Of a stretch of DNA of 64,000 nt, positions 8,199 through 59,464 are shown in pieces. Each line of letters starts with the position of its first letter. Positions within the stretch are counted from its first letter, which is position 1. The notes below the pieces were generated by a model that worked only from the letters and a program-made list of their open reading frames with translations, had not been told where the DNA came from and did not search any database. The translations under genes and the position numbers were made by a program. Origin of the DNA: Stegostoma tigrinum (Eukaryota); assembly GCF_030684315.1 (NCBI RefSeq), contig NC_081362.1, positions 74,419,018-74,483,017 on the forward strand. Reading direction: 5' to 3'.

Positions 8199-8302
8199 GA
8201 ACATAGAACATAGAACAGTACAGCACAGAACAGGCCCTTCAACCCACGATGTTGTGGCGACCATTGATCCTCATGTATGCACCCTCAAATTTCTGTGACC
8301 AT
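8199..8302 (-). mobile_element. CR1 LINE extreme 3' end with (ATAGAAC)n-type tail
   Basis: Nearly identical to 18557-18660 (atagaacatagaacagtacagcacagaacaggcccttc...caccctcaaatttctgtgaccat). Confidence 0.85.
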
Positions 8303-8611
8303 TTCTGAAAGTGGTCACAATTCACATTGTGTGCAGTCAAGTAATGCAGCAAAAGAGAGCAGCCTGAAAGTTGTCTTAACTCAGTTCTCAGTACATATCA
8401 TCATGAACTGTGGCTCTACTCAAGCTGATCTTGTCAGAAGCTGATCAGTTTTGGTTGGATCAAATGTCGGCCAAGTCACTAAGGTGCTTTTGGTGCTCTC
8501 TGTTCCAAATTAAACCATTACTTTTCTAAAATAACTGGTCCTTTTAATGCCTGAAGTCGTGCTTGTGAAAGTAATCTGAGTTTGCAGCAATGTAGGTTCA
8601 TCTTGTTTTAA

Positions 8612-8809
8612 AGATAGTGGGGACTGCAGATGCTGGAGATTCCAAGATAATAAAATGTGAGGCTGGATGAACACAGCAGGCCCAGCAGCATCTCAGGAGC
8701 ACAAAAGCTGACGTTTCGGGCCTAGATGAAGGGTCTAGGCCCGAAACGTCAGCTTTTGTGCTCCTGAGATGCTGCTTGGCCTGCTGTGTTCATCCAGCCT
8801 CACATTTTA
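8612..8809. mobile_element. Foldback mini-PLE A: inverted pLTR tails centred on a hammerhead-like motif, 14-bp TSD
   Basis: Inverted arms 8650-8726 and 8734-8810 (77 bp, 1 mismatch). Direct repeat tcatcttgttttaa at 8598-8611 and 8810-8823. Arm sequence matches the PLE tails at 12913-13041 and 23432-23557. Confidence 0.9.
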
Positions 8810-9445
8810 TCATCTTGTTTTAACTTGTTTTTGATCTGGTCCGGTAAAAAGTTCAGAGTTGCACATATTTCATGTGACCACAATTAGCATGTAAAAATGG
8901 CTCAGTAAATACAACAGCAAATCAGTGGAAATTTGTCATTGTTACTCCCATTTTATACTTGCAGGTGAAATAGGAAAGCAGAGTAGTGATACCATGTAAC
9001 AGAAATATGTTTTCCTGTTGCCTAAGGTCAAGTTGTCTAAAACTTGGTGCACCCCATTAAAGTATCAATGTATTTTTAATTATAAGCACATCATTTGATT
9101 GATTCAAAACTAACTGCTTTGGTGAAGGAGATTTATAGATTGACAGCAGTTTGTAACTTCCAATTACAAGTTAGAGAGAATCAGGGTTTTAAAGAGAATA
9201 TTTTTAAGGTAGTAAAACCACTGGTGGAGAAGTGCTAACTGTTCAGTTGTGATTTGGTGCTGTTTTATAAATATGTGAATCTGGTGCAAGTATGGCAAAG
9301 AGTTCATACGATTAACACCTATGGCTGATTGCAGTAGGCGCAAGACTGTTATATAGGTACATTAGGTTTAGGATGGCCTGGTGTCTTCAACTAGTTAGTA
9401 ACCAGGAAGATTCGCATCCTAGCTTTGATGCAATGAATATAGATC

Positions 9446-9508
9446 GCTTTTGTGCTCCTAAGATGCTGCTTGGCCTGCTGTGTTAATCCAGCTCCACACT
9501 TTGTTATC
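9446..9508 (+). mobile_element. Short PLE pLTR tail fragment
   Basis: gcttttgtgctcctaagatgctgcttggcctgctgtgttaatccagctccacactttgttatc matches the PLE tail. Confidence 0.8.
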
Positions 9509-11111: not shown

Positions 11112-11438
11112 GGGTGGCATGGTGGATCGCAGCAACAGGGATCCAGCTTTGATTCTATTCTTAGGTGACTGTCTTGTGGAGTTTGCGCATTCTGCCTGTG
11201 TCTGTGTGAGTTTTCTCTGGTGCTCTGGTTTCCTCCCACAATCTGAAGATAGCAGGTTAGGTGGATTGGCCATGCTAAATTGTCCATAGTGTCCAGGGAT
11301 GTGCAGGCTTGACGGGTTAACCATGGGAAAATGCAGGGTCAGGGAGGGGGTGGGGTGGTGGAGGTCGGTTGCTCTTCGGAGATTCAGTATGACCCAATGG
11401 ACTGAATGACCTGCTTCCAAACTGTAGGTATTCTATGA
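11112..11438 (+). mobile_element. tRNA-derived V-SINE (HE1-like), degenerate head
   Basis: Central domain tgtggagtttgcgcattctgcctgtgtctg...tgctctggtttcctcccaca and 3' end ctgtaggtattctatga are shared with the other SINE copies in the window. Confidence 0.8.
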
Positions 11439-12472
11439 ATTTTGCATTCAAAAACAAGTGGTACATGTAACTGGTTTAAAGAACTCAAGATAAATGACTT
11501 GGTTGATTTACTATTTGGCATTGAAGAGCCAATTTAATGCATTTACTGGTAATCATTTGAGACATTAAGCCTTTGAGTCACTGCAGTGTTAAAACACAAA
11601 GAAGCAAAAAAAATGAAGTATTCAGAATTTTAACTACTAATCAGATAAAATGAAGAAAATGGAGCAAAGTAAGCACCCCCTTTTAGAATGCACTATCAGT
11701 AAGTTACAACTTGTAGCATTTTTTTTCATAGTGCCAGTGTTTCAGTGAGATGCTAAGTATGGCATAAGATTGTCACCTTGTCCACAACTGAAAAAAAATT
11801 AATGTGTTGAAAATTGCCTGGGATTAGACCAGCAGCAGTTACAGAACAAAATTGATAGGGTCTTCGTACAGTAGGCTGCTTGATCAATGAGTTAACTAAT
11901 ATATGGTGGAAGGGAACCAAACTATTGAGCAGACTGCCATATAAAAATGAAATCTCCATCTCCCTCTTTTATTCTTTTGGCTCAGCTTCAGGGATTTCGT
12001 ATGATGTAAAAGATAATGGTAGTGAAACTTAACCTGTGGGCATAGGCATCAGTCTCAATACAGATGCTGAGGCCTGAAGAACCTGGATGATTGCAGCTTG
12101 AACCAGCAGGAACTCAATGGAATGAATGGCATCCTTCTATGTTAACCTCATTAACAATGAAGACGGCAATATGGGAGGAGGCAACAAAAGGTAAGTGCTG
12201 CAAGTTTGGAATCTGTAAATGATCAGGTGCTTACAAGATGGATTATGAGGGTTGGGGAGCAAATAAGTAGGACCCTGTGGGGAGAGAACAGGGAATTGTA
12301 GCCATGAAAATTGGAGCCTGAATGTTAGAGTAGTACAGAGAGATGAAGTTGCAGTATAAATGGGCTGCAGGAAGGGTTATTTTGGGGTAGGGCCAGTTCT
12401 GAAAGTCAGCCATCTGAGGATTGGGAGATGTCATGATCAGGACAGCGACTGTGATGAATACCTGATGTGTTT

Positions 12473-13041
12473 TCCACCCCCTCCCATTCTTTAGACGAGT
12501 TGTCCATCATGGGCCTCCTGCAGTGCCACAATGATGCCACCCGAAGGATGCAGGAACAGCAACTCATATTCCGCTTGGGAACCCTGCAGCCCAATGGTAT
12601 CAATGTGGACTTCACAAGCTTCAAAATCTCCCCCACCGCATCCCAAAACCAGCCCAGCCTGTCTCCACCTCCCTAACCTGTTCTTCCTCTCACCCATCCC
12701 TTCCTCCCACCCCAAGCCTACCTACTACCTCCATTTCCTACCTACTACCCTCATCCCACCTCCTTGACCTGTCTGTCTTCCCTGGACTGACCTATCCCCT
12801 CACTACCTCCTCACCTATACTCTCCTCTCCACCTATCTTCTTTTCTCTCTATCTTCGGTCCACCTCCCCCTCTCTCCCTATTTATTCCAGTTCCCTCTCC
12901 CCATCCCCCTCTCTGATGAAGGGTCCAGGCCCGAAACGGCAGCTTTTGTGCTCCTGAGATGCTGCTGGGCCTGCTGTGTTCATCCAGCTCCACACTTTGT
13001 TATCTTGGATTCTCCAGCATCTACAGTTCCTATTATCTCTT
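12473..13041 (+). mobile_element. 5'-truncated Penelope-like element (EN C-terminus + pLTR tail), 15-bp TSD
   Basis: Encodes SIMGLLQCHNDATRRMQEQQLIFRLGTLQPNGINVDF. Hammerhead-like core at 12913-12940. Perfect direct repeat atacctgatgtgttt at 12458-12472 and 13042-13056. Confidence 0.9.
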
Positions 13042-13199
13042 ATACCTGATGTGTTTGTTGTTTTTCATTCGAGCACTTGCGTCTGCATGGATAAGACAAG
13101 TCTCTGAATTGTCCTTGGGCAATATGGCAGTTTGTGCACTTCTTGCTGGTGTTATGCATAATAAATGATTTTATGCTTCACTACAGACTTGTGACTTGA

Positions 13200-15575
13200 G
13201 AAGTCGTAGTATGATGTTAATGTCAGGAGTAATCCAGGACCCCATACTCATGTTTTTGGAATAGGGGTTTGAATACATCTTGCAGATGATGAAGTTTGAA
13301 TTTAGTTTAAAAAAAATTGTCTGGAATGAAAAACCTACCTAATGACACCCATATTGTAACTGTCATTAAAGTCTGATTCACGGATGTCCTTCAAGGGAGA
13401 AAATTTGCTCTCCCTAACTGGTCAGGCCCACATGTGACTTCAAACCCACATCAATGTGACTGATACTTGACTGCCCTCTGATATGACCCTAGCAAGCAAT
13501 TGTCCTGAGCCACTACCAAGTCTAAAGGAAGGAACTAAACTGAAAGAAGCACCTGGCATCACCTTACAATATGGAAACTTATGGAAGCAGAGCCCTGTTG
13601 ACCCTGAAACGCCCTCCTTACCATCAACTGGAGCGCTGTGCTAAAATCGTGGGAGCTGTCCCACTGATTAGTGAACAACAGCCTTACATAGACATATTCA
13701 TGGAATCAAATATTACAGAAAGTGGCAGGAAAACACACTCACAATCCTTAGGTATGCCCTGGCCCTCTGGCCGAAGCAGTGACACAGTTGTATACAATCA
13801 GGAAAGACTTGGCTGGGAGTCCTCAACATTGACTCTGAATCCCATGAAATATCATGGCATCAGATTAAAAGTGGGCAAGGAAATCTCCTGCTAATTACCA
13901 CTTCTCCCGTCTGGCTGATGAATTAGTGCTCTTCCATGTTGAAACCATTTGGAGAAATGTTGAGAGTGACAAGGGCACAGAATTACTCTTGGTGGGAGAT
14001 CTCAATATCTGTCATCATAAACATGACTCAGTAGCACCTCTACTGACTGAAGTGGCCAGTCCTTAAAGAACCTAGTTGCTGGACAAAGTCTGCAGCATGT
14101 GACCTACTTGGCTTCATCCTCACCAATCTACCTGTCACAATGCATCGTCCGTGATAATATTGGTAGGAATCACACCTGCTCAGTACTGGTGGAGGTGAAG
14201 TTCCATCTTCAAGTTGAGGATACATTCCATCATGTTATGTGACCATGTCACCATGCCAAATGAGACAGACTTCAAACAGTTCTAGTAGCTCAAAATTGGG
14301 CACCTATGAGGCACAATGGCAGATCAGCAGCAGTGGAATTGTATTCAGTTACATTCTGTAACTCATGACCCAGCATATTCTCCACTTGATAATCACTATT
14401 AAACCAGGAAACCAATACTGGTTCCGTGAAGAATGCAGAAGGGCATGTCAGGAGCAGTGCCAAGCACGATCAAAAATAGAGTGCCAAACCGGTGAACACA
14501 GGAGTACTTGTGTGCCAAACAAAGGAAGCAACATGCAATATTTAGGGCTAAGCAGTTCCATAGCCAATGTATCAGATCAAAGCTGTGCAGCCCAGCAACA
14601 TCCAATCTTGAATGGTAATAGACAATCGAACAGCTAAGAGTATCAGGAGTCTTCACAAATATCCCCAAAGATGGGGGAGCCCAAGACATCAATTCTAAAG
14701 ACGAGGCTGAGTTATTTGTAACCATCTTTAGTCTGATGTGCCAAGTGGATGATCCATTTCAGTTTCTTGAGATCCCCAGCACCACAAATGCCAGACTGAA
14801 CCAGTTCAATCCATGTGATATCAAGGAATGCTGAAGGCAGTAGAGACCGCAAAGAGTAGGGGACTGGATAGCATTGAGCAAAGAAGACTTGTGCTCCAGA
14901 ACGTACATGCTCTTGGCCAAGTTGTTCCAGTATAGCTACAGTGTCATTTACACAACAATGTAGAAAACTGCCCAGTTAAATTATGCACACAAAATGTGGG
15001 AGAAATCCAACATGACTGGCAGTATATAACTGAATATGACAACAATGCCTATTCACCATTTATAAAGCACAAAATCAGGAATGTGATGACGTACTCTCCA
15101 CTTGTGTGGATATTTGCAGTTCCAACAGTCATCGGGAAGGACAATGCAGCCTGCTTGATTGCCACCTTAACAATCACCTTCAACATTCACTCTCTTTAAC
15201 ATTGATGCACAGTGGCAGTAGTAAGAACCATTTGCAAGACGTACTGCAGTAACTCACTGCTCCTCTGACTGTACCTTCCAAATCTGTGATGTTTATCATT
15301 TAGTAGAATAAATGTAGTAAATGCACGAGAAGACTACTATCTGCAAGAGCACCTCCAAGTAATTCACCATCCTGCCTTGGAACTATATCACCGCTTTATC
15401 ACTGTCGTGGTATTAAACTTTGGAACTACTTCCTAATAGCATGTGGGCATCCCCATACTCCAAGGATTATGACGGTTCAAGGCAATGCCTCACCACCACA
15501 CCCTGGAGGCCAGTTTGGAATTGGCAATAAACGTGGCCTGGTCAGTGATGTCCACGTCCCATGAACAGATTTTAA
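13200..15575 (+). mobile_element. Old, heavily decayed non-LTR retrotransposon (CR1/L2 group)
   Basis: Broken APE-endonuclease-like motifs (LVGDLNI at ~13990, L.LILTNL-like at ~14107) and IITIKPGNQYWFREECRRACQEQ linker in ORF 14365..14637, with many stops and frameshifts. Boundaries approximate. Confidence 0.55.
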
Positions 15576-16069
15576 AAAAAATGCAAAATCTACTTTACCA
15601 CTGCGCAGTGGTATGTGGCATTGTTGGTCATGCAGATTTTGGAAGAGGCATTAACTGCCATATGACAATTGTAAACTTCTCAAACAGAGAAAGGAAGTTT
15701 AGAAGCAGCTTAGCACACTACCCCCACCCAATACTATCAAAGTATAGTCATTTGCTTCTGTGAACTTGCCGATTGGTTGTCAATAAACAGTAGTGTTTTT
15801 ACTTCAAAAAGTATCAAAGATATTGGAATGTTTTGATGGTGAGAGACATAACGATATAAATATGTAGTTGCATTGAACTTACACAGTTTGCAAACCATGG
15901 ACTGTTTGCTGGATGATTAGATCCATTCCATTTGTTACAATATATTAAAAAATTATAACTGAATTTTGAGGGTGATAACTATTTCACTATGAATTCATAT
16001 TGCAAACCAGAATAATTGTTGATTATTCTGTCACAGGTGAACAACTAAACCAGTCATATTCCGCTACAT

Positions 16070-16197
16070 AAAAACGGAAAGTACTGCGGATGCAGAAACA
16101 AAAACAGAAGTTGCTGGAAAAGCTCAGCAGGTCTGGCAGCATCGTGAAGAGAAAGATCAGAGTCAACATTTTGCATTCAGAGACCGTTCCTCAGAAT
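16070..16197 (-). mobile_element. PLE pLTR tail-only element (second subfamily) starting at a decayed hammerhead core
   Basis: Reverse complement reads ttCTGAGGAacggtctctgaatgcaaaatgttgactc...gatgctgccagacctgctgagcttttccagcaacttctgtttttg; homologous to 45710-45846 and 53361-53499. Confidence 0.75.
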
Positions 16198-16775
16198 TTC
16201 CCATTACACGTTGCTATGCTCACATGTACATCACAGTAGTTAGTGACCTTTTAAAGAAACCTGACATCTGTCTCTCTCTAAGTGCTGTTGATCAAGTAAC
16301 AACTAATACGTCTGCAAGCATTTAAAGATTTTATTCACAAATTGATATGTTGTCAGTTTAGTTTGGTACACAGACATGAGAAAATGTGAATTCGTTGTTC
16401 AATGTCTCCAACAAGTTCCACCACGGTAGTAAATTTCGAATTCTATAATGTTGAAAATATGATGCATATAAATCAGTTGAAATGCTAATTTTTGGGTATT
16501 TGTGTGTTGTAACTGTCTTCTTAGTAATTGCATGAAAGCTTCCCTGTGACTTCAGGTCGTAAGGGAAAGGCATCAGGATCTGTCACAGTTTATTCATAAC
16601 AAATCAACAGTACAAACCATTCTGATGCCAGCTGGAAGAACTGATTTCCTGCAATGCAGCATTGGATCTGTAACAATTAGAAACCCAAATGTTGCCAAGA
16701 TGTTCTAATGCTTTGCCTGCATGTTTCACTGAGATCTCTTTTTTTTAATGCATTGCATTGTCACAGCCGTTTCCA

Positions 16776-17071
16776 CATAGAATCCCTACAGTGTGGAAAC
16801 AGGCCCTTCAGCCCAACAAGTCCACACCAACCCTTGGAGCATCCCACCCAGATCCATCCCCTTATACCCCACCTAAGCTACACATGCCTGGCCAATCCAC
16901 CTCACCTGTCCATCTTTGGACTGTGGGAGGAAACCAGAGCACCCGGAGGAAACTCATGCAGACACAGGGAGAACGTGCAAACTCCACACACACAGTCGCC
17001 CAAGGCTGGAATTGAACACGGGTCCCTGGCACTGTGAGGCTGCAGTGCTAACCATAGAGCTACCGTGCCGC
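16776..17071 (-). mobile_element. tRNA-derived V-SINE (HE1-like)
   Basis: Minus strand starts gcggcacggtagctctatggttagcactgcagcctcacagtgccagggacccgtgttcaattcc (A/B boxes), then the V-domain and a ctgtagggattctat tail. Confidence 0.9.
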
Positions 17072-18553
17072 TCTTTTTTATGGCCAGTGTCTAAATGTTT
17101 TCATACAAATTATCGCACACATTTGTAAATCTTTGTAAACTTACTTTTCAAAAGTGTACTTGGATTTAATTGAATAAATTTGATAAAATAAAGCAACCCA
17201 TTTGGCAAGCATCCTATCTGCTCCATGAACGCCATCCATAAGTTTCCCTGTAACAACATACCAAGGCTTCTTCAACAGAATCTCCAAACTTTGATCTTTG
17301 TGATCTTTGTCACTTGGAAGAACAAGAGCAGCAGATACATGGCAATGCCACCAATCACAAATTCGAAGCAACACAACATCTTGACTCAGAAACATGCCAC
17401 TATTCCTTCACTATCGATATCCTAGGACTCTGTCCCCATAAGGACTGTAGTGTTATCTACACGGATTGCAGTGATTGAAGAAACTTTTTGAGGGCCATTA
17501 AGTTTGGACAATAAATGCTGATTAAACCCACATCTCATGATTAAATTAAAGAAAGTGCATCTTGCTGTTAAACACAGTTATTTATGTTATCCTACACAAT
17601 GCCAATATGTACAAACTGTGAAAGTAGGTGTGTGTTTGTCAATCATGCTCAAATGTTGCCACGAGGCAAATACTTGGCAATTCAAGTCTAATGTGAATCA
17701 AGAAGCCGTTTCATTTCACAGTCAGATGAACACATAAAAATGTAGTTATGACAACTCAGATTTATGTATTTTCTTCCATAAAGTTTAATTGATTGCTATT
17801 TTAAAAAATCATTTTTACAGTCATAGTGGATATCTACAAGCTAACATATATTCAGTGAAGCATGAAAAATCATTCCTAACATAGATGCTTATTGTCTGCT
17901 CAATGGGAAACTGAATCTCAGTGATGGAGTAGCTTGTTTTATCATGGTTTTTGTGTGGTCTTTATATTTAATAGGGCCGTATTTGTAAGTTGCTTGCACA
18001 CTACTACTTTTGTGCGCACAATTCTGATTTGCACTGTCACTGAGGAAGGCTGTCTCACTGGAGCACAGAGTATCGTTAATGTCATGATAATCTATTTCCT
18101 TTCCTTGTGTAGACACACATAGACTATGGGACATGGTGGTGCTTAGGCAACGGAAATATAACTGTTGATAGCAAATGGGTTCTGTAATGAGAAACAGATA
18201 TTATAGCATTTTCTTAATTATCAGGGGCTGGGAGAAATGTGGGGTTGAATTTTTCCAGTCCTTTGGGTTGTGCTGGTGGAGCAGAAAAGGATTGAAGATA
18301 CGGAGGGTACCTGACGTCTTCATACCACTTCTCCTTTTTGACAGTGGTCAGGTATGATGTCAGATTGGTTGCCCTGCCTGCAAAACATGAAAATGGCCAA
18401 GTCTGCACCTCGGTGGCAATTTGCCCACATTAGGGGACCAGTTGCTGCAGGGGAGATTGTCATGAAAACCTTGACGGCCTCCCTGGAGCCTTCAAGAGGG
18501 AGAGACCTCCTGTTGGGATATTTCACAGCACAGAGAGAGGATCGCCTGTTGTA

Positions 18554-20335
18554 ATAGAACATAGAACATAGAACAGTACAGCACAGAACAGGCCCTTCAG
18601 CCCACAATGTTGTGCTGACCATTGATCCTCATCTATGCACCCTCAAATTTCTGTGACCATATACATGTCCAGCAGTCTCTTAAATGACCCCAATGACCTT
18701 GCTTCCACAACTGCTGCTGGCAACGCATTCCATGCTCTCACAACTCTCTGCGTAAAGAACCTGCCTCTGACATCCCCTCTATACTTTCCACCAACCAGCT
18801 TAAAACTATGACCCCTCGTGCTAGCCATTTCTGCCCTGGGAAATAGTCTCTGGCTATCAACTCTATCTATGCCTCTCATTATTTTGAATACCTCAATTAG
18901 GTCCCCTCTCCTCCTCCTTTTCTCCAATGAAAAGAGACTGAGCTCAGTCAACCTCTCTTCATAAGATAAGCCCTCCAGTCCAGGCAGCATCCTGGTAAAC
19001 CTCCTCTGAACCCTCTCCAAAGCATCCACATCTTTCCTATAATAGGGCGCCCAGAACTGGACGCAGTATTCCAAGTGCGGTCTAACCAAAGTTTTATAGA
19101 GCTGCAACAAGATCTCACGACTCTTAAACTCAATCCCCCTGTTAATGAAAGCCAAAACACCATATGCTTTCTTAACAACCCTGTCCACTTGGGTGGCCAT
19201 TTTAAGGGATCTATGTATCTGCACACCAAGATCCCTCTGTTCCTCCACGCTGCCAAGAATCCTATCCTTAATCCTGTACTCAGCTTTCAAATTCGACCTT
19301 CCAAAATGCATCACCTCGCATTTATCCAGGTTGAACTCCATCTGCCACCTCTCAGCCCATCTCTGCATCCTGTCAATGTCCCGCTGCAGCCTACAACAGC
19401 CCTCTACACTGTCAACGACACCTCCGACCTTTGTGTCGTCTGCAAACTTGCTGACCCATCCTTCAATTCCCTCGTCCAAGTCATTAATAAAAATTACAAA
19501 CAGTAGAGGCCCAAGGACAGAGCCCTGTGGAACTCCACTCACCACTGACTTCCAGGCAGAATATTTTCCTTCTACTACCACTCGCTGTCTTCTGTTGGCC
19601 AGCCAATTCTGTATCCAAGCAGCTAAGTTCCCCATTATCCCATTCCTCCTGACCTTCTGAATGAGCCTACCATGGGGAACCTTATCAAATGCCTTACTGA
19701 AGTCCATATACACCACATCCACAGCTCGACCCTCATCAACTTTTCTAGTCACATCCTCAAAAAACTCGATAAGGTTTGTAAGGCATGACCTACCCCTCAC
19801 AAAGCCGTGTTGACTGTATTTGATCAAGCCATGCTCTTCCAGATGGTCATAAATCTTATCCCTCAGAATCCTTTCTAACACCTTGCAGACAACAGACGTG
19901 AGACTTACCGGTCTATAATTGCCGGGGATTTCCCTATTTCCTTTCTTGAAGAGAGGAATTACATTTGCCTCTCTCCAGTCCTCAGGTACGACTCCAGTGG
20001 AGAGCGAGGATGCAAAGATCTTCGCAAGTGGCGAAGCAATTGCATTTCTCGCTTCCCAAAGCAGCCGAGGACAAATCTGATCCGGGCCTGGCGACTTGTC
20101 AATCTTAATGTTTGACAAAATTTTCAGCACATCAGCTTCGTCTATCTCTATCCATTCCAGCATGCACACCTGCTCTTCAAAGGTTTCATTCACTACAAAG
20201 TTGGTTTCTTTCGTAAAGACAGAAGCAAAAAACTCATTTAGGGCTTCCCCTACCTCCTCAGGCTCCACACACAAGTTCCCTATGCTATCCCTGATCGGCC
20301 CTACTCTTTCTTTGACCATTCTCTTATTCCTCACG
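18554..20335 (-). mobile_element. Young 5'-truncated CR1 LINE with uninterrupted reverse transcriptase ORF
   Basis: ORF 18643..20412 contains YRPVSLTS, QHGF, YMDFSKAFDKV, GVPQGSVLGP, KFADDTK and the CR1 C-terminus. (ATAGAAC)n tail at 18554-18574. The first ~25 codons (20336-20412) are flanking DNA, not element. Confidence 0.95.
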
Positions 20336-21217
20336 GAGCTGCCCCCCTGGCAATGGCACTGCTTAACCCCTGCAACTAACTGCCTGACCCCCGTTTTTAG
20401 GACTTCCTGCATGGCTCAGTGCTGTTAGACCACATTTAGCTTTCCTTGTATGTGCCTAGCCATCAACATAGCCATCGTCCTGCTCCGGCAGCTCCAGAAA
20501 TGGCTTCCAAGACCATTCTTTGGCAGATGGTGAAATGGTAATTCAGGATCCCATCGCTGGTTCTTTTGGTGTCAGATGTTGCCTTCATCAGAAAATCCAA
20601 ATGTGGGCATGGTTTAACTATGATTGCGGATGTGCTTCATCCTAAATGGCTATATTCAGATAGCTATATGGCCTTGCAATCTCATGACATTAATTAAGTT
20701 AAGATCTCAATAAATAATTCATCTAAATATTCTTCATCTGTGAGCTTAAACAGTATGTCTGCCTATCATTTTTCCCATCTTTGTTTCAGAGGGTTGAGCC
20801 ATGGACATCCATTGGATTGGTTTTCACACAAGTTCAAAGAACTGCAGTGCTTTCCCATTGCTCTTCCACAACAACTCACCAGGATACTTTACAGCTCAGG
20901 TATATTGGAAGGACTTACACAATGATATTCAGCCTGTTTGGCCACATTAAAAAAGACACCTCCCATGATCAGGGAGCCCAAAGCTTCAAAACAAGACTTC
21001 ACATACAATGAGTACAATCAAGTCTCACAATCCCACTCCTTTCCTCAGCAGATGTTCAAATATGCACTTTTGACTAGCAGTCATTAGGTAACAGTTGTAT
21101 TAAAAATATTTAGCAACCTGCTGTTGGTTGATATGTTGTTCTTGTTTTATGCACATTTAAAAGGCAAAGGAAATAATAGAAATCCACACTCCATAAAACA
21201 AGATGATCCTATATGTT

Positions 21218-23557
21218 AACAAAGTGTGAAGCTGGATGAACACAGCAGGCCAAGCAGCATCTCAGGAGCACAAAAGCTGATGTTTCGGGCCTAGACTCTT
21301 CATCAGAGAGGAGGATGGGGAGAGGGTTCTGAAATAAATAGGGAGAGAGGGGGAGGCAGACCGAAGATGGACAGAGGAGAAGATAGGTGGAGAGGAGAGT
21401 ATAGGTGGGTAGGGGATAGGTCAGTCCGGAGACGACGGACAGGTCAAGGAGGCGGGATGAGGTTAGTAGGTAGGAAATGGAGGTGCGGCTTGAGGTGGGA
21501 GGAGGAGATAGGTGAGAGGAAGAACAGGTTAGGGAGGTGGGGACGAGCTGGGCTGGTTTTGGGATGCATGGGGGGAGGAGATGAGCTGGGCTGGTTTTGG
21601 GATGCAGTGGGGGAAGGGGAGATTTTGAAGCTGGTGAAGTCCACATTGATACCATTGGGCTGCAGGGTTCCCAAACGGAATATGAGTTGCTGTTCCTGCA
21701 ACCTTCGGGTGGCATCATTGTGGCACTGCAGGAAGCCCAGGATGGACCTGTCGTCTAAAGAATGGGAGGGGGAGTAAAATGGTTCGCGACTGGGAGGTGC
21801 AGTTGTTTATTGCGAACCGAGCGGAGGTGTTCTGCAAAGCGGTCGCCAAGCCTCCGCTTGGTTTCCCCAATGTAGAGGAAGCCACAATGGGTACAGTGGA
21901 TACAGTATACCACATTGGCAGATGTGCAGGTGAACATCTGCTTAATATGGAAAGTCATCTTGGGGCCTGGGATGGGGGTGAGGGAGGAGGTGTGGGGGCA
22001 AGTGTAACGCTTCCTGCGGTTGCATGGGAAGGTGCCGGGTGTGGTGGGGTTGGAGGGGAGTGTGGAGCGGACAAGGGAGTCACGAAGAGAGTGGTCTCTC
22101 CGGAAAGCAGACAAAGGTGGGGTTGGAAAAATGTCTTGGGTGGTGGGGTCGGATTGTAGATGGCGGAAGTGTCGGAGGATGATGCGTTGTATCCGGAGGT
22201 TGGTGGGGTGGTATGTGAGGATGAGAGGGATTCTCTTTTGGCGGTTATTGAGGAGCCAGGGTGTGAGGGATGTGTTGCAGGAAATGCGGGCGACACAGTC
22301 AAGGGCGTTCTCGACCACTGCGGGGGGGAAGTTGCGGTTCTTGAAGAATGCGGACATCTGGAATGTGCGGGAGTGGAATGCTTCATCTTGGGAGCAGATG
22401 CAGCGGAGGTGAAAGAATTGGGAATAGGGGATGGAATTTTTGCAGGAGCGTGGGTGGGAGGAGGTGTATTCTAGGTAGCTGTGGGAGTTGGTGGGCTTGA
22501 AATGGACATCGGTTTCTAGGTGGTTGCCTGAGATGGAGACAGAAAGGTCCAGGAAGGTGAGGGATGTGTTGCAGATGGCCCAGGTGAACTTGAGGTTGGG
22601 GTGGAAGGTGTTGGTGAAGTGGATGAGCTGTTCGAGCTCCTCTTGGGAGCAAGAGGCGGTGCCGATACAGTCATCAATGTAACGGAGGAAGAAGTGGGGT
22701 TTGGGACCAATGTCGGTGCGGAAGAGGGACTGTTCCATGTAACCTACAAAGAGGCAGGCATAGCTTGGGCCCATGCATGTACCCATGGCCACCCCCTTGG
22801 TCTGTAGGAAGTGGGAGGAATCAAAAGAGAAATTGTTGAGGGTGAGGACGAGTTCGGCTGGGCGGATGAGGGTGTTGGTGGAAGGGGACTGGTCGGGCCT
22901 GCGGGATAGGAAGAAGTGGAGGGCTTTGAGACCATCTGCATGAGGAACGCAAGTGTATAGGGACTGGACGTCCATGGTGAAAGTGAGGTGTTGCGGAGCG
23001 GGGAATTGGAAGTTCTTGAGGAGGTGGAGGCGTGGGTGGTGTCACAGATGTAGGTGGGGAGTTCCTGGACCAAGGCGGAGAAATGTGGACTTCACAAGCT
23101 TCAAAATCTCCCCTTCCCCCACTGCATCCCAAAACCAGCCCAGCTCTTCCCCTCCACCCACTGCATCCCAAAACCAGTCCAACCTGTCTCTGCCTCTCTA
23201 ACCTGTTCTTCCTCTCACCCACCCCTTCCTCCCACCCCAAGCCGCACCTCCATCTCCTACATACTAGCCTCATCCCACCTCCTTGACCTGTCCGTCTTCC
23301 CTGGACTGACCTATCCCCTCCCCACCTCCCCAACTATACTCTCCTCTCCACCTATCTTCTCCTCTATCCATCTTTGGTCCACCTCCCCCTCTCTCCCTAT
23401 TTATTCCAGAACCCTCTCCCCATCCCCCTCTCTGATGAAGGGTCTCGGCCCAAAACGTCAGCTTTTGTGCTCCTGAGATGCTGCTTGGCCTGCTGTGTTC
23501 ATCCAGCTTCACACTTTGTTATCTTGGATTCTCCAGCATCTGCAGTTCCCATTATCT
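21218..23557 (-). mobile_element. Penelope-like element (Neptune-type) with inverted second arm, 15-bp TSD
   Basis: Minus-strand body 21218-23082; inverted plus-strand arm 23083-23557 repeats the EN end and pLTR. Direct repeats atgatcctatatgtt (21203-21217) and atggtcctatatgtt (23558-23572). Confidence 0.92.
21755..22975 (-). pseudogene. PLE polyprotein remnant: RT core, thumb, Cys-linker and GIY-YIG endonuclease (406 aa open; 5'-truncated, frameshifted near the C-terminus)
   Basis: MDVQSLYT (RT motif A), QTKGVAMGT, FLRYIDDC (YxDD), LTFLDL, FPCNRRKRYTC linker, VVYCIHCTHCGFLYIGETKRRLGDRFAEH. Confidence 0.9.
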
Positions 23558-26063
23558 ATGGTCCTATATGTTTTTTTTTCTATGCTTCCTTTGGATCTTG
23601 CAGTAAGTGCTAAATGACATAATGCTAATTGGACTTTAGCTTTTGGAAAACATTGAAGTTTAATTAGTAACTGATAGTATACGTGCGTTGGAGATCATTA
23701 AACTCTGACCCAAAACCAAAGATCCTGGCTTTTTGTCTGGAGCTGAACTACCCTTACAGCTCTATGTTGTCAAACACAGGGCTTAGTTAGCTAGACAACT
23801 CAAGCAGAAAAATAAATAAAACCAACAGCCCAAGTTCAATCCCTATCCCTGGTTGTTGTTTTCTGGAAAAATAAGTTTTTTTTGACAAAGCTTGTGACAG
23901 AGAAGAATATGCTGTTATTTCAGATGTAGCCTTTCATAATGAAGAATTACATACAAGACAATAAGTTGTCTTTATCTTTCAGAAATTGATAATGTACTGT
24001 ATTTAAGCTGATATCCAATTAGATATATAAATATTGATTGACTTCCCGCAGCCTAAATTAAATGATGACAATTGCAGCTTAGCAAGTAAAGATTAACACG
24101 TAAAGGTGTGGCAATAAAATCATTTTATCTTCAATAAATAAACCTTTATCCCCGTCAGCATTTTTAGGGAGTTATGTGCCATAGATAAGTGTTAAGAACT
24201 AAAGGACTAATTTATCAATAATTTTATTGTTACAGAATCAGATAACACTGCCACTTAAAATTTCCGGAAATAAATAATTAGTTAAAAATTTGTTTGTTTT
24301 CACCACTGAGGAAATGAAGAGTAAATAATTTATGTTTTAAGCATAGAAAATACTGTTTACAAAGCTTGCACCCTGCAAGATACTTCTGTCCAGTATTTTA
24401 CCATGAGTATCAATCTTCTTAAATTGAAAAGGCTAATACTTCCATTGAACTAGTTGATAAATAACTCTCATACAAATGTACTGAGCATTTTAACAATAAT
24501 ATTGTGATTTCTAGGTTTTATTGATTTTCAATTTTAACATCCAGCTCTTTTAAAATACATGACTTCAAAACCTATTCATTGTAACTGATAATTATGCTTG
24601 GTGTAAAACAATCATAGGTCCATGCATCTAATAGTAACTTTACAATGCCAACTGATCACCAGGGAGGAGTTGCAACTGATGACCTCTATGCAGAAATGTC
24701 ACACATTAACACCACTATGTTCAAAGTTATGGAGTATTCAGGCTTGTGACCATGCAGTCAACATCAACCGATAAGGAATCAGTTTCACCATGGCACCACA
24801 TGTCTGAACAGTATGGAAACAGATGTAATGGACATTTATATTTAGTTAAAGATGTCACTACCTCCTTTGAGATTGTTAGCTGCCTATAACTTGTAGTTCT
24901 TGCACCTAAAGCGGCACATTAACTTTGTAAACCTGTTGGTCTCTTTCAGTCCGTTGCAATTCTTTTTCGACTGGCAAGTCAAAAGCTGGCTTCCTGGCTA
25001 CTAAAAGATTGATCTCTCTGAGGCAGCTGAACGTCAGACTGTCAAATAACATCCACATTTTTTTTGAATGAATGTAATACCATCTCACAGGACATTACAC
25101 AGGATTCTCCTTGAATTAAACAAAGGAATATTTGCATTTACAGAGCATCAAAATATCTCAAAGTGCTTCACACAATTACTTACGATTAGAGTGCAATAAT
25201 ATGTAGACAAATGTTTTCATAAAGTCAGAACAGTTACTGTAAGAAGAAATAACCAGTGTATTTACATTCTTATTCTGTACAGCCATCCTTCCCCCTGGAA
25301 AATGCAAATACCAGTTGACATTAAGATACAAACACGATTCCCGGTCTCATTTGCTATTTCAAGTTAAATATAAGGAAGTGAACATAAACAGGTGAGATAA
25401 AATTTATCGTCAAGGATGACAGAGAAACTTGTGCAAAGTTATTGATGATCTGAATCTGGCTCAGGGTTGATATGTAACAGAGCAGCTGTCATGTCATGTT
25501 GTAACCTAGTGGAAGTCAGCTCTAAAGTCAATCTTTTGTTCTAACGTGCTACAGGTGCTTTACGTTGGAGACCTGCTGTTAATATGAAGTAAAGCCAGGG
25601 GTGAGATTTCCATCTTCCTTGTTAAAAGTTATCAAACGGAATTGGGGAAAGACATTGGAGTGGGCATTGCAATATGGTCAACGTGCTGATGTATTTCTCG
25701 GTGGGGTGAGATGCGGAGTAGGGTAAAATTATGGGGTTGATCTGTGGAAAAATTTTGTGGCTTTTGGGCTCCTAAATTTTTGTATTGCTACAGAATTCAT
25801 TCACTCACTCCAGAAATATCAATGAATATGGGGCAGGGAAGGATCCATCCCCACTGATAGTGACAGTAAGCTCTATACTCACAAACTGCCTGACAATTCA
25901 ATCTGCAAGGTTTGATTCTCACCTGGATATTATTATGGATATCAGGATAACTAACTACTTAGAATCAAGGCTGTATGCCTGTTGAAACTACCAAACCAAC
26001 TTAACCAATTCCCATTTAGTTTACTTTCTGGGCAATTCATTATTTATGACTTAAGCTTGAAGA

Positions 26064-26377
26064 ATTAGATTAGATTAGATTAGATTTCCCACAGTGTTGA
26101 ACAGGCCCTTCGGCCCAACAAGCCCACACCGCCTCATGGAGCATCCCACCCAGACCCATCTCCCTATAACCCACACACCCCTGAACACTACGGGCAATTT
26201 AGCATGGCCAATCCACCTAGCCTGCACATCTTTGGACTGTGGGAGGAAACTGGAGCACCCGGAGAAAACCCACGCAGACACGGGGAGAATGTGCAAACTC
26301 TGCCCGAGGCTGGAATTGAGCCCGGGTCCCTGGCGCTGTGAGGCTGCAGTGCTAACCACTGAGTCACCGTGCCACCC
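26064..26377 (-). mobile_element. tRNA-derived V-SINE (HE1-like) with (TCTAA)n tail
   Basis: Minus strand begins gggtggcacggtgactcagtggttagcactgcagcctcacagcgccagggacccgggctcaattcc; V-domain present; (ttaga)4 at 26065-26084. Confidence 0.9.
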
Positions 26378-26378
26378 T

Positions 26379-39920: not shown

Positions 39921-41463
39921 AGTCCTCCCCCACCGACACCCTCATCTGCTTAACCAAACTCGTCTTTACCCTTAACAAATTCTCTTTTAACTCTTTCCAC
40001 TTCCTACAGACTATGGGGGTGGCCACAGCCCCCCGCATGGACCCAAGCTATGCCTGCCTCTTTGTAAGATACATGGAACAATCCCTCTTCTGCTGCTATA
40101 CTGGCACTACTCCCACCTCTTCCTCTGCTACATTGATGACCATATTGGCGCTGCGTTGTGCTCCCACAAGGATCTTGAACAGCGCATCAACTTTACTAAC
40201 ACCTTTCACCCCAACCTCAGGTTCACCTGTATTATGTCCGGTACCTCTCTCTGCTTCCTGGTCTCTCTGTTTCCAACTCTGATGACCGCCTTGAAACAAA
40301 CATCTATTTCAAGCCCACTGACTCCCACAGCTACCTAAACTACATGTCTTCTCACCCACCCTCCTGCAAGAATGCTATTTCTTACTCCCAATTCCTCCAC
40401 CTCCACCACATCTCCTCCCAAGATGGGACATTCCTTTCCCGCACATCCCAGATGTCCTCCTATTTCAAGGACCATAACCTCTCCCCTCCAGTGAGTGAAA
40501 ATGCCTTCAAACACATTTTTTGCATTTCCCACACCTCTGCCCTCACATCGCCTCCAACCAACAAAAACATAGAATAAAGACAGAATCCCCCTTGTCCTCA
40601 CATATCACCCCACCACCTCCACTTCCCACATATCATTCTCTACTCCATCTACAATCTGACTCCCCACTCCAATCTGCCTTTTGGGAGGGACCGCTCTCTA
40701 CGTGGCTCCCTCGTCCACTCTGTACTCCCCACTAGCCCCACCATCCCTGGCACATTTCCCTGCAAGCGTAGGAGGTGCTACACCCGCCCCTACACCTCTC
40801 CCCTCACCTCCAATCAAGGCAAAAAACAAACCTGCGACATCAGACACGGGTTCATCTGCACATCCGTTAACTTGGTCTACTGTTTCCGCTACTCTTGATG
40901 TGGCCTCCACTACATTGGTGAGACCAAGCAGAGACTCAGAGACCATTTTGTAGAACATCTGCACTTTGTACGCTATAATCAACAACACCTTCTTGTCGCG
41001 AAACTTTTTAATTTCCTCTTCCATTCCCTGGGTGACATGTCCATCCTGGGCCTGCTCCAGTGTCACAATGACGCCACCCGCAAACTGGAGGAGCAACACC
41101 TCATGTTCCTCCTTGGGAGCCTACAGCCTGATGTCCTAAACATGGGTTTTACCAGTTTCAAAATCTCCCCAGCCCAGGCTCATCCAATGACCAACCGTCC
41201 CTCTCACCCCCACCTCTTTGACCTGACACAACCTATCCATCTTCACTCCTACCTATCCGCCATTCCCACCTCACTGACCAATCCCTGCCACTCCCTGCCT
41301 ACATCCATCACCCTCCCACATACCTTCCCCAGTGCAACCCCTCTCTCTATTTATTTCGTAAACCACCCCCTCCCCACTTCTGAAGAAGGGTCCCGACCCG
41401 AAACGTTAGCTTTCCTGTTCCTCTGATACTGCCTGGCCTGCTGTGTTCCTCCACCTTCAGACT
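39921..41463 (+). mobile_element. Degenerate Penelope-like element (RT, EN and pLTR)
   Basis: Frameshifted LVFTLNKFSFNS.HFLQTMGVA, YIDD, SHPPSCKNAISYSQF and SILGLLQCHNDATRKLEEQHL. Hammerhead-like core CTGAAGAAGGGTCCCGACCCGAAACGTT at 41380-41407. Confidence 0.88.
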
Positions 41464-41484
41464 TCAGGAACAAAGAGTTTAGTT

Positions 41485-43350: not shown

Positions 43351-43599
43351 TAAAATTCATTGTGGCTTTTTCACAGGGTGGGGGACTTCATGGCTCGTGT
43401 GCAAATTTTTAAGGTGAGAGGAGAAAGATTGAAAAAAAGACATGAAGGGAATTTTTTTTTGCACAGAAAGTGGTTCGTGTTTGGAAGGAACTTCCAGAGG
43501 AAGTGGTGGACTTTGATTTAATTTATTGTTGTCAGATGTACCTAAGAAGAGTGAAAAGTTTTGTTTTGTAAGCAGTACAGGGAAATAATAGCATTCAAG

Positions 43600-43902
43600 G
43601 GGGCACAGTGGTTCAGTGGTTAGCACTGCCGCCTCACAGTGCCAGGGACTCGGGTTTGATACCAGTCACAGGCGGCTGTCTGTGTGGAGTGTGCACATGC
43701 TCCCTGTATCTACGTGGGTTACTCTGGGTGCTCCAGGTTCCTCCCACAGTCCAAATATGTGCAGGCTCGGTGGATTGGCCACGGGAAATGAAGGGTTACA
43801 GGGGCAGGATGGTGTGGTGGGTCTGGACAGGTTGCTTTCCAGAGGGTCAGTGTGTTCTCAATGGGCTGACTGGCCCGCTTCCACATTGTAAGGATTCTGT
43901 GA
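43600..43902 (+). mobile_element. tRNA-derived V-SINE (HE1-like)
   Basis: ggggcacagtggttcagtggttagcactgccgcctcacagtgccagggactcgggtttgatacc head, V-domain, tail ccacattgtaaggattctgtga. Confidence 0.88.
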
Positions 43903-44009
43903 ACAAGAACACACAGTTTATAGAGTGTCTAGATAGAGTGATGCATACAAGGTTACAGCTGCACAGGAGGTGCACAGACACAAGATCAACATCAGATGTG
44001 AAATTTTAG

Positions 44010-45709: not shown

Positions 45710-45846
45710 TGAGGAAAGGTCACCGGACCTGAAATGTTAACTCGATTTTCTCCTTCACAGATGCTGCTAGACCTGCTGAGCTTTTCCAGCAACTTTGTTT
45801 TTGTTCCTGATTTTACAGTATCCGCAGTTCTTCTGGTTTTTTTTAT
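45710..45846 (+). mobile_element. PLE pLTR tail-only element starting within the hammerhead core
   Basis: tgaggaaaggtcaccggacctgaaatgttaactc...gatgctgctagacctgctgagcttttccagcaac. Confidence 0.8.
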
Positions 45847-46806
45847 GTTGCTTTCTGCATTGCTCTCCCTGTCAAACAGATTAGCTTTGATCTTCCTCAT
45901 TTTCCCACTAAATCTTTTATTTAAGCACTAACCTTTCCACTTTACCTCCAAGCCCCAGACATATAACTTAGCTGTGACAAACACAGTTATGCACTTAGCC
46001 CCCATCAAAGTCAGGATCATGAAGGCCATCAATGATCTCCATCTCACAGTACCCCTTGCTGTCCCATGCTCTATCACCATATTCCTCCCATATAGGTTGT
46101 GTTGTCCCTCACCACAATTATTGTTCCCTCTGCATCCCAACATGCTACCTCCGATGTTAACTTCCCCAGTTTCCCATCACAGCACTGGACCCTGATAATA
46201 CCCCCTTGACTTTCAATGAACAGATTCCTTGGATTGACTGTGGCCGACCTCCCTAACTGACTAGGAAAAGCCATTCCAACAGATGAGTGACCATAGCCCT
46301 AATTGATCTCTGTACAATTCCATGACTAATTTACCTCTAATCCCCTTCCTGGTTGCACTGGACTTGCAGAACAGGCCATCGTCCAATTCCCAAACTGTGG
46401 TGATATCAGCCCCTTAACTCTGACCAGTTGAGCCACTTGACTGAGCATGGCCAAGAGTCAGTCTACCTTAATCTGACTAAGGACTGCTTCTGTTAGCCTT
46501 CAAGAATGGCCATTTGGTTGAAGCGCCTTTGCCATATAAATTGCCTACAAATGCTGCAGGTGTGACATTGATGTAGTATTAATGTATATTAACACAGCCA
46601 CCTCCATTTCCTTTTGGTCTGTATTAAAAGGTAAGGTGTGTCAGCAGTGCTCAATGCACTGGCTCTTCTCTCTGGTCCAAAAAAGCAAAGCAGCACGTGC
46701 TACGTCCGAATCCATCAAGAAAACCAACTCCTGCTCTGCACAGCACCACTAACCAGTCATGAATCTGAGAGAATATCTTTCCCATTTGCTGGCACATTAA
46801 TCACAA

Positions 46807-46951
46807 GTGAATCAGAGAATGAAAGAGTTAAACAGTAGAGAAAAGGCCTTTAAGCACATCATATCTGCACTATCGGGTGCAAGTTAATTCAGTGAGCATA
46901 TATTTTAATGACTAAACATGACATGCTGATGCATTACATACAGGTTATCAA
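46807..46951 (+). repeat. Donor copy of a 145-bp local duplication
   Basis: Identical except for 2 substitutions to 47875-48019. Confidence 0.92.
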
Positions 46952-47874
46952 CACTTGGATTTAATTTGCCATTGATGGGTTTCCCAATGTTCATCCACAG
47001 CTGAGAAGTTGACACTTCACCTCCCACACAATTAAAATCCCCCCTCTGCCTCATCTCCTGCCATTGTGAGGATCATTAGATTTTAGCCATAGTTCCTTCA
47101 AGTGATCTTTTTAATCAGTTTTTGACTACTTCTTGTTCAAAGTATCATAGAAAATTTGTATATTAACATGTCATATGATAATTAGACTCTCCTGCTAGTG
47201 GCAGTATTGTTATGTGTCAGTATTGTGTCTCCCAGCTTCTCAACTTGCAATGAAAATCTTCTGCTGCAACTAACTATACTTCCATATTTCTTTATGACCG
47301 TGTTTTGATATTTTTAATTATAATGATGTATAAAAAAACAAGGATATAATGCACAATTGTCAGTCTGTGCATCCAGGCCAATTATTTCGGAACTTTTGAC
47401 GCAGCTTTATCTGGAAATCATAGTTAGACCTGACATCACATGTAACAGCTTAGAAAAATGACTTCTATCAACTCTACATCGCTCAGATATTTTAAGTAAT
47501 CAGAAAAATGGCAGCAATATTAACATGCAGCTTCACTTCCTTGGAAACAATAAGGATTGCAGATGCTGGAGACCAGAGTCTATGGGTGTGAGGCTGGAAA
47601 AACACAGCAGGTCAGACAGCATTGGAGGAGCAGGAAAGTCAACGTTTTGGGCCAAAACCCTTCGAGAGTCAAGACTGGGGAGGGGGTGGGGCGCCCAGAA
47701 ATAAATGAGGGGGGAAAGCGGTGGCTTGCCGAATGGTAGGAGAGATGGTGTTAGGTGGATGCAGGTAGGGGTTTATTGTGATTGGTCAGTGGGAAGAGTG
47801 GAGCAGATAGGTGAGTAGGAAGATAGACAGGTTAGGTCAGGCCAGGGAGGTGAGGAGGAGGGGAAGGTCTGGAC

Positions 47875-48019
47875 GTGAATCAGAGAATGAAAGAGTTAAA
47901 CAGTAGAGAAAAGGCCTTTAAGCACATCATATCTGCACTATCGGGTGCAAGTTAATTCAGTGAGCATGTATTTTAATGACTAAACATGACATGCTGATGC
48001 ATTACATACAGGCTATCAA
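47875..48019 (+). repeat. Inserted copy of 46807-46951 inside the PLE
   Basis: 145-bp direct copy, 1068 bp downstream of the donor, flanked by PLE sequence on both sides. Confidence 0.92.
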
Positions 48020-53360: not shown

Positions 53361-53499
53361 ATTCTGAGGAAGGGTCACCAAACCGGAAATGTTAACTCTG
53401 ATCTTTTCTTCACAGATGCTGCTAGACCTGCTGAACTTTTCCAGCAACTTCTGTTTTTGGTCCTGATTTACAGAATCCACAGTTCTTTTGGTTTTTATT
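53361..53499 (+). mobile_element. PLE pLTR tail-only element starting at the hammerhead core
   Basis: attCTGAGGAagggtcaccaaaccgGAAATGTTaactctg...gatgctgctagacctgctgaacttttccagcaacttctg. Confidence 0.8.
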
Positions 53500-54142
53500 A
53501 GTCATTCAGAATTGCTTTATCTTTGTTCATGGGATGTGGGAGTCAATAGCTTGGCCATTATCTATTGCTGATTTCTAATTGCCCCATGACGAGTCAACCA
53601 CATTGCTGTGGTTTTGGTGTCATATGTAGGTCAGACTGGCTGAGGTTGACAGATTTCCATCCCTAAAAACACATTAGTGAACCAGACTGATGCTTTTATG
53701 ACAATTGGCAGTGCTTACACAGTCACCATTAGGCTAGCTTTATTTTTAAATTCCAGCTTTTTATTGAAATCAAATTTCACCAACTGCAATGGTGGGATTT
53801 GAACTCATGTCCCCAGAAAATTAGCTCAGGATTCTGGATTACCAGTTCAGTGACATTACAATAGGCCTCCCTTTAAACTGTTAGAAGTGCAAATCTACCT
53901 GATAATTCCCTGCATGTGAAAGATACTGAGCTTTCATTTTTTTGGTTTTAAGCTTGTTGCTATCTGATTTGATTTAGATCACGAATAGCAGACCTGATTT
54001 TAGTTTATCTGTACCATGAACCTCCAGGCTTTCATGAATTGCTGATGTTACTAATTAATAACATTCCTGCATGGTTTTGGAAATTGGCAAATATTATCAG
54101 AAAACTGGACGATTTTTTAAAGCAATTTACTTAAAGCAATTT

Positions 54143-59250: not shown

Positions 59251-59464
59251 AGACAACAAAATGTGAGGCTGGATGAACACAGCAGGCCAAGCAGCAACTC
59301 AGGAGCACAAAAGCTGACGTTTCGGGCCTAGACCCTTCATCCAAGGGTCTAGGCCCGAAACTTCAGCTTTTGTGCTCCTGAGATGCTGCTTGGCCTGCTA
59401 TGTTCATCCAGCCTCACATTTTGTTGTCTTGGATTCTCCAGCATCTGCAGTTCCCATTATCTCT
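59251..59464. mobile_element. Foldback mini-PLE C, 15-bp TSD
   Basis: Inverted arms ~59249-59337 and 59343-59431, then a 33-nt tail. Direct repeats gagatttaatgtgca (59236-59250) and gagacttaatgtgca (59465-59479). Confidence 0.9.

Follow-up and report, generated by a model that had tools for sequence, protein, structure and literature searches.

Paired short and long ends and narrow target site duplications in a probable Neptune-type Penelope-like element of Stegostoma tigrinum

Insertions of Penelope-like elements (PLEs) often carry a short tail on one end only, which has been ascribed to endonuclease resolution, and the origin of this tail and of the tandem and inverted structures of these elements has been named as an open question (Craig et al. 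2021, PMC8557442). A tail of 31 bp on one inverted repeat has been described together with an argument for self-priming (Arkhipova et al. 2013, PMC3846280), and a repeat of 34-37 bp has been reported (Schostak et al. 2008, PMC2377424). For Poseidon_Ac, two internal reverse transcriptase (RT) start positions were found in vitro to bound a tail of 30-40 nt, both target strands are cut and extended, and a dimer was predicted with AlphaFold (Frangieh et al. 2024, PMC11167929); that work left the later insertion steps unvalidated.

The 64-kb window studied here, by which we mean the whole stretch of DNA that was analysed, contains seven young PLE insertions. How do such insertions come to have two kinds of end, an inverted arm and a target site duplication (TSD) of nearly constant length?

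An endonuclease-bearing element, probably of Neptune type

Judged from its coding and end sequences, the repeat is best read as a young, endonuclease-bearing (EN+) PLE of Neptune type. A 428-aa ORF fragment on the reverse strand (21755-23041), broken by a stop codon at its lower end, holds in one frame an RT domain, a degenerate CX4CX2C linker and, at the C-terminus, a GIY-YIG endonuclease with an internal CxxC. Its Pfam scores lie just under both cut-offs (RVT_1, E 1.1e-5; GIY-YIG, E 1.8e-4), and a full-length relative with 48% identity, P0012, scores above both for RVT_1 and GIY-YIG. The fragment has the CCHH motif, its cysteine pair lying between GIY and YIG (VVYCIHCTHCGFLYIGET ... EH ... 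NHF). The linker is of the CX2-5CxxC type, with the consensus CxRxRCxTC in 21 aligned proteins; it is intact in an older copy at 48002-48553, and in 21755-23041 the second cysteine has been replaced. Since such a linker between RT and EN is a mark of Neptune or Nematis (PMC8557442), the element would belong to one of these two clades. Longer protein relatives, 77 in all, were found at 33-53% identity. From the host ranges of the two clades, we tentatively take the clade to be Neptune rather than Nematis.

The copies show an optional tail of 30-40 nt, an inverted 5' arm and TSDs, as expected of EN+ PLEs. A full-length copy is absent from the window, and tandem-type joints occur in public contigs. 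By inspection, a putative minimal hammerhead-like core lies at 23432-23459 on the forward strand (CTGATGA, stem II, GAAAC as the majority allele, and GTC), with a predicted cut after 23459; it resembles the min-HHR described in PMC4209133. A search of the 3' repeat against Rfam gave five weak matches, hammerhead not among them, and a 22-letter pseudo-LTR pattern had 0 matches in metagenome and viral contigs.

End classes, target site duplications and pairing

The tail region contains TTATCT twice, 33 nt apart, at 23519-23524 and 23552-23557 on the forward strand, and the window holds six short and five long ends in the places where the earlier note had reported them. The two classes are as it described them, except that all five long junctions come after the second hexamer and none within it; the letters ctg that it read after 23557 are absent there and follow the copies at 31141 and 59457 instead.

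Four insertions are head to head. The largest joins a short-ended 1.86-kb reverse-strand arm that carries the ORF's 3' half (21218-23082) to a long-ended forward arm of 475 nt (23082-23557), between 15-bp TSD copies at 21203-21217 and 23558-23572 (one mismatch, 14/15). A small one consists of a long-ended reverse arm (8612-8726) and a short-ended forward arm (8725-8809) that extends 9 nt beyond its partner on the 5' side, flanked by 14-bp TSD copies (8598-8611 and 8810-8823, 14/14). Another links a short-ended reverse arm (30912-31011) to a long-ended forward arm (31020-31149), with 14-bp TSD copies at 30898-30911 and 31150-31163. In the last, a short-ended reverse arm (59251-59341) and a long-ended forward arm (59343-59464) share the variant TTGTCT at the first hexamer site, and the 15-bp TSD copies lie at 59236-59250 and 59465-59479 (one mismatch, 14/15). 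The other three insertions, all on the forward strand, are a single-arm, 5'-truncated, long-ended copy (12473-13041) between 15-bp TSD copies (12458-12472 and 13042-13056, 15/15), a single-arm, short-ended copy of 63 bp (9446-9508) that begins 1 nt past the predicted hammerhead cut, and a short-ended copy, again with TTGTCT, that is cut by the window edge (1-993).

Junctions were fixed by the TSD edge and expressed in the coordinates of the copy ending at 23557. The four short ends fixed in this way fall before 23519, 23521, 23523 and 23525, a window of 7 nt, and the five long ends before 23558, 23558, 23560, 23561 and 23561, a window of 4 nt. About 38 nt separate the two end windows, the second of which is placed entirely beyond its hexamer, on the downstream side. 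From the junctions and the loose contig ends given below, we place a first putative priming window at 23519-23525 and a second in the six letters that follow the hexamer in longer copies, the optional tail being 23525-23557 (all forward strand). The hexamer itself varies: site 1 reads TTGTCT in 3/11 arms, site 2 reads CTATCT in 1/5, and A>G at 23521 makes up ~4-5% of depth in the public runs X12 and X13 and 22% in X10. The windows are probably set by the position of the protein on the RNA and not by the hexamer. The end region folds with ordinary stability (z -0.32 and -0.26), and we therefore claim no structural basis for the windows.

Ends genome-wide were read from contigs of four public runs (three organism labels) placed on 23390-23599; the ends listed come from 24 rows, 777 further rows lie outside, and some ends are uncounted. 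Among the ends listed, loose ends lie behind 23523, 23524, 23525 and 23557 in 905, 2309, 737 and 1158 contigs of X12 and in 903, 2226, 728 and 1148 contigs of X13, although the reference itself forces a pile at 23557. Positions 23523-23525 together account for 3951 contigs in X12 and 3857 in X13; X10 has 557 contigs at 23524, and X11 has ends at 23524 (16), 23556 (3) and 23557 (17), again among the ends listed. None of these ends falls between the two windows. Past 23557 the loose consensus runs for six letters and then turns into low-agreement, A/T-rich sequence, and these copies accordingly stop within a few letters. The ends listed thus support two end classes in public contigs, short of the full histogram of end positions that the earlier note had suggested as a check. 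Short ends exceed long ends by ~3.4:1 among the ends listed, and many insertions can therefore not be 1:1 pairs of a short and a long end.

The five TSDs in the window measure 14, 15, 15, 14 and 15 bp with 0-1 mismatch; among 300 random position pairs taken as a control, the best match never exceeded 12. The earlier note had assigned a TSD of 14-15 bp to every complete insertion. The proportion is 5/6, because 9446-9508, with both edges in the window, is a sixth complete copy and has no TSD (best 7/8, inside the control range). A second PLE family in the window has a 14-bp TSD (13/14 at 53321/53497), the one clear case in searches of eight older-copy spans; the span 39911/41466 is doubtful (11/13) and the others are at chance level. 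Relatives were represented by 80 metagenome loci with 33-61% protein identity, and TSDs of 13-15 bp flank 5/7 of their inverted insertions. For 16 single-arm ends in relatives, where contigs often cut the copy, a search covering the whole upstream sequence yielded nothing convincing, the best matches being 8-11 letters long. Six reconstructed target sites share no visible endonuclease motif beyond A/T-rich flanks, and the five window TSD sites give no sign of microsatellite targeting. A stagger of 13-15 nt, which the earlier note had called fixed at ~14-15 nt, is found in five window copies, one copy of the second family and five relatives; it does not extend to a genome-wide claim, and the description of PLE TSD length as variable (PMC8557442) counts against a narrow stagger.

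All four head-to-head insertions in the window have one short and one long end, just as the earlier note observed. Taken alone, this 4/4 is weak evidence: P is 0.0625 at equal use of the two ends, 0.016 at 23% long ends and 16/70 = 0.23 conditional on four ends of each kind. In the relatives, 12 inverted repeats were first inspected, and seven (L034, L002, L036, L051, L041, L073 and L057) were set aside, either because they did not show two paired outer ends of a PLE or because the contig end cut them; the addition of L065 and L028 from the end survey gave seven head-to-head insertions with both outer ends visible. A short and a long end are paired in 5/7: L017, L065, L067 and L071, all with TSDs of 13-15 bp, and L028, which has none. 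L040 has a TSD of 13-15 bp and one arm that ends before the hammerhead; both arms of L001 end at one place, and it has no TSD. Window and relatives combined give short with long in 9/11 (P 0.033 if the two ends are used equally, 0.009 if 30% of ends are long), in 8/9 insertions with a TSD (P 0.02), and in 8/8 of those with a TSD whose ends both fall in the two windows (P 0.004, again for equal use). Classified by eye, the ends of the L009/L060/L071-type family divide into 10 short, 10 long and 1 other; its tail is ~50 nt long.

Proposed primer pairing, arm lineages and rival accounts

At each of the nine window junctions that have a TSD, its far copy was compared with the continuing sequence of the element. 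The first four positions match at 24/34 (7/9, 7/9, 5/9 and 5/7 by position), where a null that lets the TSD edge slide by chance yields 0.34-0.35, and 0/20,000 simulations reached 24/34. By simulation, short ends alone give P 0.02-0.03 and long ends alone P 1e-4 to 5e-4, the long-end figures depending on six letters of continuation that were deduced from the consensus of loose ends in public contigs. The excess of contiguous matches is only moderate (14 vs 6.5 expected, P 0.02). A permutation of the real targets over the junctions, as a control for nuclease preference of any kind, yields P 1.1e-5; the true order ranks first of 24 for the short ends, and for the long ends 4/120 orders reach it. 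Five junctions in relatives with known continuation match at 14/20 vs 7.2 expected (P 0.0024; range 1-4 of 4). The microhomology seen in the earlier note is present too, with 7/8 first letters of target and element identical at 8810 and two TSDs starting with ATAC. Against primer pairing count a mismatched first base at 2/9 window junctions and the report that the Poseidon_Ac RT start is not homologous to the cut DNA (PMC11167929). The evidence is small in extent, with 9 window junctions, 5 junctions in relatives and 11 inverted insertions.

The two arms of an insertion share variants at 23508-23514 in 4/4 cases, including the rare site 1 variant at 59 kb; the chance of this is ~0.02, as estimated from variant shares in contigs, and arm-to-arm conversion could be a source. 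In the part upstream of the predicted hammerhead cut, the two arms of 21218-23557 agree at 91%, which is no more than they agree with another insertion, and they group with different copies (9 informative sites vs 2 and 1), the short-ended arm with 1-993 (9/12 informative sites) and the long-ended arm with 12473-13041. At least this insertion therefore drew on two template lineages or a template switch. Since the 3'-end variants are shared and the upstream lineages are split, no single simple template model fits both. Short-ended arms reach further 5' in 4/4 window insertions and in L017 and L065, and the order is opposite in L067 and L071, where the long-ended arm is longer. Inner head-to-head junctions have 0-2 shared or a few added letters.

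We consider it probable that these insertions arise from a staggered double cut, after which both 3' overhangs prime at different windows of the RNA in a register set by 2-4 base pairs. The element protein, probably as a dimer, would cut the target strands 13-15 bp apart to leave two 3' overhangs, each of which would prime cDNA at an internal point of the element RNA, downstream of the hammerhead; window 1 would serve one overhang, and window 2, ~38 nt further on, the other. The tail would then be the RNA between the two RT start positions, because the overhangs prime in two different windows. Within a window, the start would fall wherever the final 2-4 bases of the primer find their best pairing with the RNA, mismatches being tolerated, and the two truncated cDNAs would be linked head to head, with 0-2 letters shared or a few added. 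Extension of a single overhang would yield a single-arm copy with the same TSD. The arms need not share one pseudo-LTR and could come from two RNAs, from two units of a tandem RNA or from a template switch near the hammerhead. The end classes, TSD lengths, junction matches, pairing counts and arm lineages are observed here; the concerted cutting, the dimer and the cause of the pairing are inferred. Counted against this double-priming model are the copies without TSD (9446-9508, L028 and L001), the coinciding ends of L001, the arm of L040, and tail-to-tail joints of a short and a long end, found in 177 contigs in each of X12 and X13.

Both strands might instead prime while choosing window 1 or window 2 independently, the pairing being an effect of small samples. 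This is unlikely given the 9/11 overall and the 8/8 in-window cases with a TSD (P 0.004), and unequal use (3.4:1, among the ends listed) would make pairing rarer still. Alternatively, the tail could be shaped after synthesis by endonuclease resolution, a short end being a trimmed long end. Such resolution has been proposed (PMC8557442), the D. virilis endonuclease requires the tail for recognition (cited in PMC11167929), both sites are quasi-palindromes, ATC-NNN-GAT, as the site of a dimeric nuclease could be, and variants are common to both arms. We still hold trimming to be rather improbable, since short-end junctions spread over 7 nt and track the target sequence as priming predicts, a pattern that end-joining could mimic, and since both sites are RT starts in vitro for Poseidon_Ac (PMC11167929).

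Fold-back and self-priming of one cDNA, as argued in PMC3846280, would make the second arm a copy of the first. The three small insertions do reverse direction at the hammerhead stem, where 0-2 letters are shared, arms share variants in 4/4, and the longer long-ended arms of L067 and L071 are what fold-back allows. In the four window cases, L017 and L065, however, the tail is missing from the arm reaching further 5' and present in what would be its copy; fold-back fails in these 6/8 cases, because a copy of the further-reaching short-ended arm could not carry the tail. Together with the different lineages of the arms of 21218-23557, this largely refutes fold-back for the 6/8 and makes it highly improbable as the general account. 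Very unlikely, too, is the strict form of the earlier note, in which UUAUCU acts at each position as a sequence-specific primer or protein-binding site. Common to the two sites is TTATCT-YN-GAT, the relative L071 has TTATCT at its short end, and the Poseidon_Ac template repeats a hexamer at +75-80 and +111-116, counted by eye (PMC11167929). However, 5/5 long junctions come after the hexamer, the variant TTGTCT (A>G at 23521) is in use, and the L009/L060/L071-type family has no hexamer common to both ends. The proposal that each strand primes at a different UUAUCU therefore survives as different RNA sites, a narrow stagger and short primer-RNA pairing, and finds no support as to UUAUCU being the sequence primed on.

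The double-priming model can be pushed further, tentatively and as the less probable outcome: Neptune-type PLEs would insert by a concerted, asymmetric two-site reaction of a single complex, with a fixed stagger of 13-15 nt, obligatory priming of one strand per window, telomerase-like alignment over 2-4 bases and a tail length equal to the spacing of two RT active sites. If so, the one reaction would explain tail, inverted arm and TSD together, and elements of different hosts with a protein identity of only ~50% would have kept it in common.

Comparison with known systems

Two discrete ends and a one-sided tail are known PLE biology, seen here in what appears to be a Neptune-type family. The additions are modest but real and based on small numbers: a narrow TSD, near-regular pairing, junction matches and arms of two lineages. 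In the accessible portions of the literature searched, we found no TSD of 13-15 bp for Neptune, no rule of short/long pairing and no primer-RNA pairing for EN+ PLEs; Arkhipova 2006, Evgen'ev and Arkhipova 2005, Pyatkov 2004 and Repbase may state these. Any good assembly would allow three quantitative constraints (the narrow stagger, the short/long pairing and the primer-RNA pairing) to be counted, and the existing in vitro assay could test them; primer alignment would link PLEs functionally to their sister enzyme, telomerase.

An L1 inversion consists of an upstream piece of one RNA that does not overlap the rest and whose priming takes place at variable internal sites. Such twin priming was reportedly described by Ostertag and Kazazian in 2001. 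Unlike L1, the window PLE has arms that carry the same 3' segment (they overlap in 4/4), two fixed start windows, lineages that may differ between arms, and no poly(A). Twin priming in the L1 sense, to which the earlier note had likened the reaction, is not supported, because fold-back fails in 6/8 cases, because both arms repeat one 3' segment and because the arms of the largest insertion, 21218-23557, differ in subfamily. The likeness to L1 twin and snap-velcro priming lies in the use of the second strand as a primer, giving an inversion, and in the weight of the last four primer bases, which matter most in snap-velcro priming with mismatches tolerated (PMC3649969).

With canonical EN+ PLEs the window element shares 5' truncation, an inverted arm at the 5' end, an optional 30-40 bp tail, frequently on just one end, and TSDs. 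Their TSDs are described as variable, or as 8, 9 and 10 bp in Adineta (PMC3846280), in contrast to 13-15 bp in the window PLE and its relatives, and the published accounts, with the tail made by endonuclease resolution and the inversion by self-priming, differ from the model given here. The closest parallel is to Poseidon_Ac, which, as proposed for the window PLE, has two internal starts downstream of a hammerhead and uses both target strands. Its main start lies at +111-118 from the ATG in the hammerhead, compared with +124-127 (long ends) and +85-91 (short ends) in the window PLE. Poseidon_Ac is of the Poseidon clade, whereas the window PLE is probably Neptune-type; and the accessible text on Poseidon_Ac gives no TSD length, short/long pairing or model of inverted insertions.

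Tail-to-tail joints in public contigs

Contigs from two public sequencing runs, X12 and X13, that aligned to the 3′ end region of the young Neptune-type Penelope-like element (PLE; 23390-23599) contain joints in which position 23521 or 23523 is connected to position 23556 or 23557 on the opposite strand (177 contigs in X12 and 177 in X13). Such opposite-strand joints correspond to pairs of one short and one long end lying tail-to-tail, and neither short-short nor long-long joints were found among the 15 joints listed of the 57 on this interval. These structures could have arisen when an older copy was hit by an insertion in its window 1, the site of the short ends; consistent with this explanation, site 2, at the long ends, forms a perfect inverted repeat of 11 nt, the arm of which has a match in site 1. 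The joints could also reflect extension of both nicks without melting.

Starts and stops around the hammerhead-like core

The 63-bp copy at 9446-9508 begins 1 nt past the predicted hammerhead cut (after 23459). In the public contigs, 4 of the 12 joints listed restart exactly at 23460 and 4 others at 23479. The start of the 9446-9508 copy and the restarts at 23460 are possibly a trace of in vivo hammerhead cleavage. Loose 5′ ends accumulate at 23431, in 495 and 454 contigs. Tandem joints lead from 23524-23525 back to 23428, with a unit length of about 97 nt. Both arms of each of the three small palindromes (8725, 31011-31020 and 59342) end inside the hammerhead core or a short distance ahead of it. 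At a metagenome locus carrying a PLE relative (L040, 2360-4517), the right arm of an inverted insertion with a target site duplication (TSD) stops just before the hammerhead core, in neither window.

Older copies and neighboring repeats

Further PLE families of greater age, which carry hammerhead cores and tails of their own, occupy 16068-16202, 45710-45864, 53335-53496 and 35266-35359; three stop at the same long-end position and one has a 14-bp TSD. Two further older copies, at 39921-41464 (+) and 47550-49176 (-), show about 70-77% similarity to the young family. The second of them is interrupted near 47870-48025, where 145 bp have 98.6% identity to 46807-46951.

LINE fragments at 18561-20415 (-) and 54062-54872 (+), which we take to be CR1-like, show a reverse transcriptase match (E 8.5e-35) and an open frame of 590 aa; a repeat of the LINE 3′ end lies at 8199-8302. 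An interspersed, SINE-like family of about 300 bp (72-85% alike) is present at 11127-11439, 16776-17078, 26081-26378, 34077-34390 and 43597-43903. An open frame of 270 aa that contains a run of glutamines (29979-30791, -), for which no Pfam match was found, may be a large host exon, and the PLE insertion at 30898-31163 lies immediately upstream of it.

Reading frame at the hammerhead

The ATG inside the hammerhead opens only 13 codons before a TGA, after which the frame is open through the tail (23435-23560). The young PLE open reading frame likely involves an intron or another start codon. In Poseidon_Ac, a PLE studied in vitro (PMC11167929), the open reading frame begins at the hammerhead ATG, whereas in the young PLE of the window the frame from this ATG closes.
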